In this document: positions 6,787 to 57,676 of the stretch, piece after piece | Numbering within the stretch: the first letter of the stretch is position 1 | How the letters are laid out: every line of letters begins with the position of its first letter | NCBI GenBank assembly: GCA_964016885.1 | Contig: OZ024741.1 | Span: 82,956,001 to 83,020,000 of the forward strand | Direction of reading: 5' to 3' | Source of the DNA: Eledone cirrhosa | Lineage: Eukaryota | Length of the DNA stretch: 64,000 bases | Notes under the pieces: model-generated | The model's input: only the letters and a program-made list of their open reading frames with translations | Told to the model about the DNA's origin: nothing | The model's database searches: none | Program-made: the position numbers and the translations under genes

Positions 6787-6970
6787 GTAGGAAATGTGGT
6801 AAGGAACCAAGTGGACCATAACGCACCAAAGTACTCAATACTTAGGGTAATAGAGTGGGTAATAGGAACCGGTAAGACCCCGACGGCTGAGCTCAAGCCG
6901 TTTCGACGGCTAATTCTGCAGAATTAGCCGTCGAAACGGCTTGAGCTCAGCCGTCGGGGTCTTACTGGTT

Positions 6971-6972
<2 letters not shown>
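6783..6972. mobile_element. Family A HHR-bearing element, fold-back copy in (TA)n
   Basis: GACCCCGACGGCTGAGCTCAAGCCGTTTCGACGGCTAATTCTG|CAGAATTAGCCGTCGAAACGGCTTGAGCTCAGCCGTCGGGGTC; TA tracts on both sides. Confidence 0.85.
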
Positions 6973-7035
<63 letters not shown>

Positions 7036-11730: not shown

Positions 11731-11778
<48 letters not shown>

Positions 11779-11780
<2 letters not shown>

Positions 11781-12034
11781 CGAAGGAAATGTGGTAAGGA
11801 ACCAGGTGGACCATAACGCACCAAAGTACTCAATACTTGAGGTAGTAGAGTGGGTAATAGGAACCAGTAAGACCCCGACAGCTGAGCTCAAGCCGTTTCG
11901 ACGGCTAATTCTGGACTAAATGAAAATTTATCCTGGTATTTAAATAGCCGATCTTCTCAAGGGGTAATTTTCATTTAGTCCAGAATTAGCCGTCGAAACG
12001 GCTTGAGCTCAGCTGTCGGGGTCTTACTGGTTCC
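11779..12034. mobile_element. Family A element, longest copy (complete HHR plus inverted partial copy)
   Basis: Same sequence as 6783 copy but extends to TAGCCGATCTTCTCAAGGGGT before inverting; flanked by (TA)n. Confidence 0.85.
11872..11965 (-). ncRNA. Type I hammerhead ribozyme, U3:A8 core variant (family A)
   Basis: Minus strand: ACCCC-UUGAGAA-GAUCGGCUA...UAGCCGUC-GAAACGGCU-UGAGCUC-AGCUGUC-GGGGU; helices I, II and III pair by eye; GUC triplet. Confidence 0.75.
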
Positions 12035-12055
12035 TATATATATATATATATATAT

Positions 12056-32610: not shown

Positions 32611-33984
32611 TACGTCATTTTTATTTCTCTCTCTATATATATATAGTAATAACAATAATAAAAATCCAAAGAGGACTCGGAAAGATTTGTAGAGAGAATA
32701 TTTTCATTAGTACATATTCAAACTTTAAGCAAAACATTTCATCAGCTTATTGTCCATACGATTCGTGTTATACAGTTTATTCTTACATGCTGTGATTGCC
32801 ATAGAATTTTTTTTTTAGTTCGTTCGTTGGCTTAAAGGATTCCCAGGGCTTCAGCAGCACAAAGATTATGCGGTATTTTATTTCCGCTTTAGCTAAGCTT
32901 TCCAGCGTAATCTATATCGGATGTTATTCTATTTTAAATTCCAGATATAGGCTGAAAGTGATGCCATATTCCTTCTTAAAGGGTTTCGAAATGAATAAGA
33001 ATGCATGTATATACACGGCTTATAGCTAATATGATATTCTTAATGTGTTTCTATTAAAAATCTTGTCATATATATGTGCTAAGTGTAAATTAAGAAAGTC
33101 TTTAGCTATTATGTATTCATTTCCATATTATATGGTGGATTATACCATTAATCTATGTTGCTCTATTTTGGTTTTTGCTTGTACTTAGTGTATTCTAATT
33201 TATCTAGAAATCCGCTCCAAGCTAGAGTTTCATTGTAATATGTTGATAAATGTAATATGCTGATAAATGAGAATGCCTCAATGACATGTTTTGACCAGAT
33301 ATTTAGTTATACTGGCTGGATTGTTAGAATACTTAAAAATTGAAAGTGTAATTTGACTTTCTATACGGATAGTACATGTCTTCCAAGGAAATTCATTACA
33401 GATATGTTGGTCACAACTTCAATGGAATGGTAAAACGTATTTTAAGAAATTGATTAGTTATTTTCTAAACGTATCAATAGCCTGGGGACCGCAAACGACC
33501 ATCATCACCTTAGAAACCCTCGCCAATATTAGGGAATTCATCCTTGATGGAAAATAAATTATTCCACAAGGCTTAAAGGGACCATATCTGAAATTTTGTG
33601 TAAAATCATCTCTCAACTACTTTTACTAAGCCTACCTAAATTATAATTAGCAGGGGTATGAGCCGAATTGATAGGTTGTTATCAATTTTGTTTAATGCTT
33701 CTTCGGAGTAAAATGGGGAGAAAAGTGTTCAGAGGTTCAGTCCAGTTCTGGATATTAAGTTCCGATGTGAAATTACGCCAGCGTTCGAAACATCTGAGGC
33801 AACTTCAGCTTGTAAGCCTATTCTGTATGAGATAACTTTGTATTGAAGCCAAAAACTACAGTATGGAAATTATGCTAATGATACATGTCATTATATGGTA
33901 GCTAAGACCAATCTAATTCTATATTCAATTTATATATATATATATGCGTGTATATACATAGAGAGAGACAGACAGAGAAAAGAA

Positions 33985-34155
33985 AACATCTTACACATAT
34001 CGCTAATGGGTCGATAAAATATTGTTCCCTGGGGATATATAAAATCTCAAGCAACTTAAATATAAGGAGGCTCCTTATATTTAAGTTGCTTAAGATTTTC
34101 TATATCCCCAGGGAACGATATTTTATCGATCTGTTAGTGATATTTATGAGATGTT
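33985..34155. repeat. Diverged palindrome centred at 34070
   Basis: GTTCCCTGGGGATATA...AGCAACTTAAATATAAGGAG-G-CTCCTTATATTTAAGTTGCT...TATATCCCCAGGGAAC. Confidence 0.9.
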
Positions 34156-38021: not shown

Positions 38022-38052
<31 letters not shown>

Positions 38053-38212
38053 GGAACATGTTTAACAACGATGACAGAGCTCAAGCCGTTTCGACGGCTT
38101 GAGTTCTGGTGTCGGGGTTAAACATGTTTCTATTACCCACTCTACTACCCTAAGTATTGAGTACTCTGGTGCGTTATGGTCCATCTGGTTCCTCACCACA
38201 CATCCTTGGTTA
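38053..38212. mobile_element. Family A fold-back copy, diverged
   Basis: GACAGAGCTCAAGCCGTTTCGACGGCTTGAGTTCTG...GTATTGAGTACTCTGGTGCGTTATGGTCCATCTGG; TA-flanked. Confidence 0.8.
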
Positions 38213-43198: not shown

Positions 43199-43420
43199 CA
43201 ATATATTAACAGAGAAAGCCTTAAGCTATACTCTGACTGGCTTCCATCTCACTCAACAAACATTAGGATATACCTTAGTATAATCACAATTTTTGTTTGG
43301 GGTGCTAACTATATGTATTTTGCGGAAGACCAGTAGTATTATTTTATATGAGACATAATTAAAATATATATATATTTATAGTTTTGAGAGGTTTTTTATA
43401 TGAAATCATGTGTCGAAACA

Positions 43421-44127
43421 AATATTGTTATACTTGGTGAGGGTCATATTTGTGTAATATTGCCAGAATTAATAACGGAACACACTCACTCTTTGGTTGG
43501 TTTTCGCTTTTCGCTTCTGTGTCTTTTATATCGGTAATCTAATTTATTCGGTCCTCAATGTTGCCATTGACTGACCAACGGTAAAATATAATACATATAC
43601 AATATAGACACAAACACATATATATAGTTTATCAGAGTTCTTTCGTTGCACATCTGCAACATCGTCAGTGGTGCTATTGTTTCCTCCCGTTACATTGTAT
43701 GTCTAGGCCATCTTTATTTAGTCTGTTTATATATTTATTTATTTATTTGTTTGTTTGTTTATTTACTTTCAAAGAAGACAAAATAAAATAGACAAACAGA
43801 CAAATAAATAAATAAATATATAAACGGACTAAATAAAGATGGCCTAGACATACAATGTAACGGGAGGAAACAATAGCACCACTGACGATGTTGCAGATGT
43901 GCAACGAAAGAACTTTGATAAACTATATATATGTGTTTGTGTCTATATTGTATCTGTATTATTTTTGACCGTTGGTCAGTCAATAGCTACATTGAGGACC
44001 GAATAAATTAGATTACCGATATAAAAGACACAGAAGTGAAAAGCGAAAACCAACCAAAGAGTGAGTGTGTTCTGTTGTTAATTCTGGTAATATTACACAA
44101 ATATGACCCTCCCCAAGTATAACAATA

Positions 44128-44128
<1 letters not shown>
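43421..44128. mobile_element. Family L fold-back element, ~340 bp near-identical arms, each with an HHR-like core
   Basis: Arms are reverse complements; CUGACGA-U-GUUGCA GAUG UGCAAC-GAAAG at 43882-43910 (+) and 43640-43668 (-). Confidence 0.85.
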
Positions 44129-44169
<41 letters not shown>

Positions 44170-50860: not shown

Positions 50861-50862
<2 letters not shown>

Positions 50863-51308
50863 CAAACGAATTGTTGTAAGGAAGCAGATGGACCATAACG
50901 GACCAGAGTACTCAATACTTGGGGTAGTATGACCCCGACGGCAGAGCTCAAGCCGTTTCGACGGCTATTTCTGGACTAAATCCAGATATCGCCGTCGAAA
51001 CGGCTTGAGCTCTGCCGTCGGGGTCATACTTTTTCCTATATATATATATATATAACGGAGGAAATGTGGTAAGGAACCAGGTGTACCATAACGCACCAAA
51101 GTACTCAATACTTAGGGTAGTAGAATGGCTAATAGGAATGAGTAGGACCCCGACGGCTGAGCTCAAGCCGTTTCGACGGCTAATTCTGGACTCAGTCCAG
51201 AATTAGCCGTCGAAACGACTTGAGCTCAGCCGTCGGGGTCCTACTACCACAATTATTGAGTACTTTGCTGCGTTATGGTACACCTGGTTCCTTACCACAT
51301 TTCCTCCG

Positions 51309-51343
<35 letters not shown>

Positions 51344-51405
51344 AACGAGTAGGACCCCGACGGCTGAGCTCAAGCCGTTTCGACGGCTAATTCTGGACTC
51401 AGTCC
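50861..51405. mobile_element. Cluster of three family A insertions separated by (TA)n
   Basis: Copies at 50861-51037 (fold-back), 51053-51311 (fold-back at CTGGACTCAGTCCAG) and 51341-51405. Confidence 0.88.
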
Positions 51406-51604: not shown

Positions 51605-51924
51605 TGAAATAAGATAATAAGGACGATTGGTTACTCCTTCATTACGTTCATTGGTTGGTGACGCGCGTTTCGTCACTGATCAGCTCAAAATTCGATCTGT
51701 ATCGATCTGACTCGACTCTGTAATCCGCGGCTCGTCAAACCCCTTGTAATATTAATGGGAAAACAAAATTCGATTAACATTACAAGGGGTCTGATATTCT
51801 GCGGTTTACATAGTCGGGTCAGATCGATACAGATTGAACCTTGAGCTGATCAGTAACGAAACGCGCGATACCAACCAATAAACGTAATGAAGGAGTAACC
51901 AATCGTCCTTGTTACCTTATTTCA
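51605..51924. mobile_element. Family N diverged fold-back with degenerate HHR in each arm
   Basis: ~150 bp arms; outward-reading GGGGU-(C/U)UGA(CGA)...AC-GAAACGCGCG(UC)-ACC. Confidence 0.7.
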
Positions 51925-57432: not shown

Positions 57433-57624
57433 TAACGAAGGAGTTGTGGTAAGGAACCAGATGGACCATAACGCACCAGAGTACTCAATACTTAGGGTAG
57501 TAGAGTGAGTAATAGGAACAAGTATGACCCCGATGGCAGAGCTCAAGCCGTTTCGACGGCTATTTCTTAGTCCAGAAATAGCCGTCTAAACGGCTTGAGC
57601 TCTGCCGTCGGGGTCATACGTTTT

Positions 57625-57626
<2 letters not shown>
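57433..57626. mobile_element. Family A fold-back copy
   Basis: AACGAAGGAGTTGTGGTAAGGAACCAG...GAGCTCAAGCCGTTTCGACGGCTATTTC then inverted short arm; TA-flanked. Confidence 0.85.

Positions 57627-57676
<50 letters not shown>

Follow-up and report, generated by a model that had tools for sequence, protein, structure and literature searches.

In a 64,000-nt window of the Eledone cirrhosa genome (the whole stretch of DNA that we analysed), the minus strand of 11872–11965 holds a complete type I hammerhead ribozyme (helix I open), which on its sequence context lies in a young Penelope-like element (PLE), as part of that element's terminal repeat (pLTR). The explanation that best fits the whole of our observations is that this pLTR hammerhead probably cleaves itself in vivo after GUC with a U3:A8 core pair. 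A fuller account, in which the promoter would split the ribozyme, both kinds of 5′ end would be preserved as stumps, and C3·A8 cores would still have been cut while the 3–8 pair walked from U·G through U:A and C·A to U:A, is one that we put forward tentatively, at somewhat below even confidence.

A hammerhead in the pLTR of a Penelope-like element

Helix I, the core UUGAGAA, helix II, GAAA, helix III and GUC, all named in the initial annotation, are each present on the minus strand (Table 1), and its claim of a complete hammerhead with a U3:A8 core was borne out by the sequence, by shuffles and by covariation. Scanning the window with a type I descriptor gave a single match, the motif at 11872–11965, and 200 dinucleotide shuffles searched on both strands gave no match as good and five loose ones. 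The minimum-energy fold of 11866–11970 is the hammerhead fold, with a probability of 0.56 for the isolated window motif; the fold energy is not beyond that of shuffles (z −0.61). Rfam models found no hammerhead in the window at the gathering score, nor in an intact copy at E ≤ 10, probably because the long loop II and the variant core defeat them. Helix III has 6 bp in the window copy and 5 bp in older subfamilies. In intact copies helix I is predicted to extend (GGAAUU/GGUUCC) beyond a 6-nt bulge, an extension absent from the window copy, and no loop I–loop II contact motif was identified.

Table 1 Features of the hammerhead and its host copy in the window (positions in the 64,000-nt window; +1, inferred transcription start)
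Feature	Position	Strand	Evidence or remark
Helix I 5′ strand ACCCC	11961..11965	-	94.7% of cells paired across 19 copies
Core positions 3–9 UUGAGAA (U3, A8, N7 free)	11954..11960	-	N7 = all four bases among copies listed
Helix II 5′ strand GA(U)CGGCUA, begins with G10.1	11945..11953	-	Two-sided changes at 3/11 helix II pairs in subfamily B
TATA-like TATTTAAA	11939..11946	-	First base 29 nt upstream of inferred start; sequence only, function putative
Loop II, 37 nt, contains inferred transcription start	11908..11944	-	Sequence, arm ends
Inferred transcription start +1 (A of TT|AGTCC)	11917	-	Arm ends, untemplated G
Helix II 3′ strand UAGCCGUC, ends with C11.1	11900..11907	-	Sequence, pairing across copies
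Core G12 A13 A14 (GAA)	11897..11899	-	G12–A14 conserved in alignment
Helix III (6 bp, one G·U; strands 11896–11891 / 11883–11878), loop UGAGCUC	11878..11896	-	
Palindrome GAGCUC in helix III loop	11884..11889	-	
Predicted cleavage site GUC^G (C17 = +41 at 11877, G1.1 = +42)	11876..11877	-	Paired arm ends elsewhere in genome
Helix I 3′ strand GGGGU	11872..11876	-	Sequence
Inner insertion 3′ end TTCCTAT| (+61), putative second start of reverse transcription	11857..11863	-	Arm ends
80-nt 'tail' ending at CTTCGTTAT| (+141)	11777..11856	-	Arm ends; in intact elements continues into 5′ UTR and ORF
Inverted 72-nt arm (−11..+61), head-to-head join at AATT	11966..12037	+	Pairs perfectly with ribozyme 3′ half
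(TA)n target flank, tail side	11734..11779	.	Sequence
(TA)n target flank, inverted-arm side	12035..12055	.	Sequence

Intact elements are 3.53-kb units, often in arrays of 2–4, with one 717-aa ORF and a 1.1-kb 3′ UTR, and the ribozyme lies ~280 nt upstream of the start codon. The ORF contains, by eye, the motifs QFDIESYY, YRDD and YIGLT, representing a reverse transcriptase (RT) together with a GIY-YIG-type endonuclease at the C terminus. A Pfam search with it returned no family; 2,049 homologues were found among 8,000 scored proteins, the best of which has Pfam GIY-YIG. Its RWR, DKT, CxCx5C linker, CNLC (CxxC) and CKH (CxH), together with the (TA)n targets, match the Hydra clade of PLEs, an assignment made by motifs against the published description. 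Other traits of EN+ PLEs are present, namely pLTRs from partial tandems, an adjacent inverted copy and a tail. Insertions have two fixed 3′ ends on (TA)n, +61 and +141, with 63 of 144 arms ending at +61 (a count that includes some duplicates from overlapping loci), and the priming sites have short TAT matches to the target. Loose ends at +61 were seen at L067 7817.

We rejected a non-LTR retrozyme, since the 5′ half is missing from the short copies, which are head-to-head stumps, and the tandem units are 3.5 kb long and coding; a non-autonomous element that is copied as a unit is unlikely, as the junctions differ between copies. The genome holds more PLE families, because divergent PLE ORFs with 30–43% identity lie beside family copies (L015:1858–3169 and L069:194–790, both minus strand). 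Within the window, 32899–33557 (minus strand) carries decayed fragments of a distant PLE ORF, 29–50% identical to the protein of intact elements. Other repeat families contribute long inverted repeats or palindromes at 43397–44153, 19003–20039, 12834–14131, 51605–51924 and 33985–34155, and the hammerhead descriptor gave no match on these five.

The window copy itself is a 196-nt arm (11969–11774), an end fragment of ~200 nt sharing 99% identity with the terminus of intact elements, and its ribozyme matches that of the intact 3.53-kb elements. When this arm is folded together with its inverted arm, a predicted 72-bp stem absorbs the whole 3′ half and the probability of the hammerhead falls to about 0. 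As modelled, the window copy is probably an inert, dead-on-arrival stump of an active family, its ribozyme sequestered by the inverted arm.

The core 3–8 pair across subfamilies

Core types were counted genome-wide (3.0-Gb genome) as exact matches in the frame ACCCC-YUGANRA-GNUCRGCUA, because our DNA similarity search favoured copies with rare words; reversed-pattern controls gave 0 matches. U3:A8 was found in 4,556 of the 6,162 motifs, C3·A8 in 1,534 (25% of the copies with a 5′ half), U3·G8 in 60 and C3:G8 in 12, the last three counts being obtained by subtracting the G8 list. A Watson–Crick 3–8 pair is thus absent from 1,594 motifs (C·A, U·G). We found no canonical C3:G8 subfamily genome-wide, the 12 copies being scattered and comparing with ~18 expected from independent changes. 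One lineage was sampled without fixing the core (first 100 of 1,557 matches): 67 copies had C3, 30 had U3 and 3 had another base, and the remaining six core positions had 0–2 variant copies each. A shifted core register that would yield G8 was rejected, since only the stated register puts the freely varying base at position 7.

Position 3 has therefore changed at the scale of subfamilies without position 8, and the 3–8 pair has not been steadily compensated. This divides the initial annotation's proposal of a compensated U3:A8 core: U3:A8 is the majority state, whereas steady compensation is contradicted by the C3·A8 quarter of the motifs and by older subfamilies that include U3·G8. The segment ACCCC-UUGANAA does belong to the family, as the intact elements carry it. 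N7 takes all four bases among the copies listed.

The trees were built with the tested columns masked, from a short alignment that gave rough support, with G8 and C3 rows picked by pattern and with a direction taken from branch lengths, without an outgroup. At the base of the ladder lies the distant subfamily B, which among the copies fetched is mostly U3·G8, with some U3:A8 and two C3:G8. Next come a UUGAAGA group (U3·G8) and then UUGAAAA/UUGACAA (U:A), followed at the top by several CUGAGAA rungs (C·A) and then the youngest U:A groups. With this rough support, the trees suggest that the 3–8 pair passed through U·G, U:A, C·A and U:A in that order.

In subfamily B, the pairing of helix II is kept through two-sided changes at 3 positions, and helix I has none. 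The covariation score was reached by none of 500 shuffles; the independent events are few, since all derive from one lineage split. GAGCUC is retained in subfamily B although other loop bases change, and YAG at the loop II boundary is kept across all subfamilies. A subfamily B arm in the window (14697–14773) has the same end position in loop II, and another copy of such an arm lies inside a ~7.3-kb tandem duplication with identical flanks (L143, L144 and L145; G000:C3:89.75–90.22 Mb).

Genomic 5′ ends at the predicted cut site and inside loop II

If the hammerhead cleaves its RNA, some genomic copies might end at G1.1, that is, at +42. Arms with a purine before GGGGTC number 951, and of the 30 such loci that we fetched, 19 were truly truncated, 6 carried point mutations and 5 had a G inserted. 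A control at +48 gave 221 matches, of which 8 of 15 were truncated and none was symmetric. For tail arms alone, the +42 excess over this control is only about 2-fold (951 × 8/30 versus 221 × 8/15). No clear peak at +42 emerged from a smaller sample of 179 arms anchored in the tail: 4 ended at +41..+43, including two internal deletions, which agrees with a class that makes up only 1–2% of arms. The base before +42 in the true truncations was G in 5 and A in 14, with no G bias, which, set against the G at +1 described below, is expected of uncapped versus capped ends.

The paired ends are more telling than the single arms. Head-to-head junctions gave 838 matches on both strands, and the first 100 listed contained 56 distinct junctions, counted by eye. 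In 22 of the 56, both arms end at +42 with 1–6 untemplated, mostly A/T bases between them, and in 9 one arm ends at about +42 with a partner trimmed by 1–3 nt. Of the rest, 11 resemble CCCCGGGG and are ambiguous, a microhomology deletion would account for 8, and 6 are of other kinds. No listed junction had both arms at +41 plus a spacer, and only one had both ends downstream of +43. The paired +42 ends are likely fossils of self-cleaved RNA: an uncapped template cut after GUC would yield such ends when the RT ran off it.

The U3:A8 lineage of the window copy itself accounts for ten of the 22 paired junctions, and a lineage that is two-thirds C3·A8 for 6, where cutting of its U3 third alone would predict ~2 (P~0.007, a rough value). 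This is a weak hint that the mismatched C3·A8 cores may have been cut, either in cis or in trans. We looked downstream of +42 for sites that would separate C3 from U3 copies and found none, so that the footprints are not assignable to a core type.

It is a real possibility, if not the one we would choose, that cleavage does take place but depends on a dimer, on a trans arrangement or on the protein of the element, which would be a variant of the best explanation. The 5′ half at an RNA's 3′ end, or that of a second RNA, would pair with the cap-proximal 3′ half, or RNAs would join through GAGCUC. Such routes could account for cutting of C3·A8 lineages, including the 6 footprints above, and they fit with the retention of GAGCUC in subfamily B and with a self-dimer that is far more stable in silico than the monomer (−27.7 versus −5.6 kcal/mol). 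The anole PLE ribozyme is described as requiring its protein (PMC11167929). Folding predictions speak on both sides. The hammerhead fold has a median probability of 0.00–0.19 in the older subfamilies, which as monomers are predicted to favour a misfold, and of 0.57–0.64 in the youngest; the youngest subfamily, with its 6-bp helix III, is predicted to fold as a monomer (P~0.57). That C3 and U3 copies are alike downstream of +42 also weakens the footprints as an argument for these routes. The youngest subfamily carries changes at 11952 (A at 10.2) and 11880 (U, helix III 3′ strand) on the minus strand; the fold predicted without them is a competing AGCCGU-CGAA-ACGGCU hairpin, and with them the predicted probability of the hammerhead rises from 0.02 to ~0.6. 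Copies with the 11952 change alone are already predicted to fold as the hammerhead.

The far more abundant class of ends lies within the ribozyme. Exact matches genome-wide gave 6,162 5′-half motifs and 70,198 3′-half 16-mers, about 9%, and within the window 1 of 16 family arms reaches helix I, in agreement with the earlier estimate that about one in ten copies keeps the 5′ half. Of 130 arms drawn from the window, from 200 kb of neighbours and from a position-ordered list, 99 end at −6..+8 of +1, within 14 nt inside loop II, and 16 reach helix I. Six further palindromic stumps of this family in the window (6789–6975, 15358–15549, 15973–16105, 38042–38210, 50862–51399 and 57435–57629) all have 5′ ends at −8..+7; at 51192/51194, two arms both end at +1 with a single C/G base between them. 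Contig depth rises ~15–20-fold in the +1 region in X2–X4, three runs of one sample; the contigs come from four runs of one study and have no bearing on expression. Run X1, with more depth downstream of the cut site than X2–X4, was left unused.

A purine precedes +1, where the element has T or C, in 7,341 copies. This untemplated base is G in 87 and A in 13 of the first 100 matches (P about 1e-14 versus 50:50), and 30 fetched copies were truncations at or beside +1 with 25 G and 5 A, of which ~9 of the 25 G cases could derive the G from the partner arm. Several +1 junctions carry an extra G on both arms. For L1/SVA, the untemplated G that retrocopies may carry at the 5′ end is described as an established footprint of the cap (PMC3287187). 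The G at +1 is likely such a cap footprint, and we infer that RNA polymerase II would start inside the ribozyme, in loop II. The TATA-like box occurs in young subfamilies only and is absent from subfamily B. Most copies most likely lack the 5′ half because their RNA starts inside loop II, rather than through decay.

The loop II boundary could also be a 3′ splice site (TTAG| or TCAG|) or a hairpin at which the RT stops, a reading that we consider unlikely. YAG is kept in all subfamilies, the Penelope intron of D. virilis ends at its hammerhead, and the ends scatter over about 14 nt, as this reading would allow. The extra G, however, precedes the A of AG and does not follow it; the junctions show no common upstream exon, and the ends at +2 and +3 no common leader; and the loop II hairpin is weaker than helices that the RT had already crossed.

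Slightly less probable again is a vestigial ribozyme, the +42 ends arising where the RT stalls at the helix III base or through repair of palindromic DNA, and the core being kept by overlap with a promoter or protein site. The 1,534 copies with C3·A8, the U3·G8 of older subfamilies and the lack of an Rfam match would agree with lost function, and +42 does adjoin the helix III base, with three arms ending at +25 near another predicted hairpin. These points are outweighed by the 22 of 56 listed junctions in which both arms stop at one base with untemplated additions, never both at +41 with a spacer, by the free drift of N7 next to neighbours that do not drift, and by the helix II pairing maintained through two-sided changes. 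A chance fold in repeat DNA, which would suit a fold energy no better than that of shuffles, is refuted by the fixed position upstream of a PLE ORF, by the 0 of 200 shuffles and 0 reversed-pattern matches, and by the covariation, and has next to no probability.

We therefore return to the self-cleaving pLTR hammerhead and propose the following course of events. RNA polymerase II would start at +1 in loop II, so that the cap-proximal repeat would hold the 3′ half of the ribozyme only and the whole ribozyme would be found only in the downstream repeat. Priming by the element's RT would occur at two sites, +61 and +141, each on its own DNA strand. From capped RNA the RT would run off at +1 and copy the cap as an extra G, giving the short palindromic stumps (~88%), and on cleaved 5′-OH RNA it would run off at +42, giving on the order of 1–2% of arms. 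The ends so preserved would run to tens of thousands of stump insertions of the capped type and hundreds of the self-cleaved type. Copies that cross into the 5′ half (~10%, the window copy included) would come from read-through multimers, from circles ligated at the cut site or from end-to-end template jumps, and cleavage would trim multimeric RNA to unit length.

The coding copies bear on this last step. Among 26 ORF-leading copies, the 5′ half is present upstream in full in 20 and in part in two more; a start at about +42 was seen once and a start at +1 in none. Their templates thus exceeded the length of one capped unit, which multimers, circles or template jumps would provide. In one ORF-leading copy (L043, about 1300) the 5′ end lies at ~+41/+42, as expected of unit-length RNA cut at both ends; it is a single case. 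Two four-unit arrays, L067+L068 (G000:C1:437.20 Mb) and L070+L331 (G000:C1:91.47 Mb), have variants alternating A-B-A-B, which rests on 1 site in one array and on 3 sites and an indel in the other, and a three-unit array at C2:320.55 Mb is A-A-B. The alternation points to two rounds of copying of a two-unit template or to templates that alternated; a later duplication is also possible. Cleavage is probably not strictly required, since the C3·A8 lineage kept amplifying. The case for cleavage in vivo is further weakened by the anole PLE, whose cleavage is reported as dispensable for insertion in vitro (PMC11167929).

Comparison with known hammerheads

The ribozyme, then, is a known kind in a known kind of element, whose anatomy varies in a 5–6 bp helix III and a long loop II. 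What it adds, all by genomic inference, would be a start site within the ribozyme, ends at the cut site and a drifting 3–8 pair. The function of PLE hammerheads has been called unclear, and they have been considered as possibly mere parasites (Craig et al., PMC8557442). If the stops of both arms at the cut site are true cleavage marks, they would amount to in vivo evidence of cleavage, open to scoring wherever a genome is rich in PLE stumps. Were transcription to start inside the ribozyme, both the absence of the 5′ half from most copies and the escape of the RNA's leading end from cutting would be accounted for. With its U·G, U:A and C·A states, the natural series provides ready variants for testing the tolerance of the 3–8 core. 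Our literature searches, judged mostly from titles and abstract openings, listed no description of PLE copies ending at the cut site in a genome, nor of transcription starting inside a PLE hammerhead.

The U3:A8 core itself is not new, as U3-A8 cores in PLE hammerheads have been in print since 2014, when a dedicated descriptor gave ~1,300 matches (Cervera & de la Pena 2014, PMC4209133). As described there, minimal PLE hammerheads, among them the U3-A8 variant of Cercyon elements in Schistosoma mansoni, share with the Eledone element a type I motif in the pLTR, a short helix I of 5 bp and a long helix II of 7–8 bp, G10.1-C11.1, U3-A8, a palindromic loop 3 and mostly solo truncated copies. The Eledone element differs from that description in its 5–6 bp helix III, where metazoan PLE motifs are given none or a small one and a large helix III is described for fungi and protists. 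It differs also in the 37-nt loop II with its inferred start, in having no extra base between 9 and 10.1, in C3·A8 and U3·G8 at subfamily scale, and in its ends at the cut site. A long helix III may already be present in published supplements (the Hydra drawings in file S2, the Cervera alignments and Lunse et al.), as may U3-A8 in the Hydra drawings.

The Hydra clade, as characterised by Craig et al. 2021 (PMC8557442), shares with the Eledone element a single ORF, RWR for RWK, DKT, CxCx5C, CxxC and CxH, as well as (TA)n targets, a pLTR hammerhead and the tandem and inverted arrangement. Its members are described as generally <3 kb with tails typically of 30–40, whereas the Eledone element has 3.5 kb and an 80-nt tail, a 1.1-kb 3′ UTR and tens of thousands of copies.

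The green anole's Poseidon element PAc (Frangieh et al. 2024, PMC11167929) is similar in that two internal RT starts define a tail, the target is AT-rich and the hammerhead lies upstream of the RT starts. Unlike the Eledone motif, that of PAc is a C3:G8 minimal motif overlapping the start codon. Another difference lies in the short TAT matches of the Eledone priming sites to the target. The PAc study found no RNA ends at the cut site, and this too counts against our preferred reading; genomic copies of the Eledone element do end there. Finally, natural U3/A8 covariation, stated to be active in vitro, was described by Perreault et al. 2011 (PMC3088659) for the compensated pair only, whereas the Eledone lineage appears to pass through U·G and C·A.
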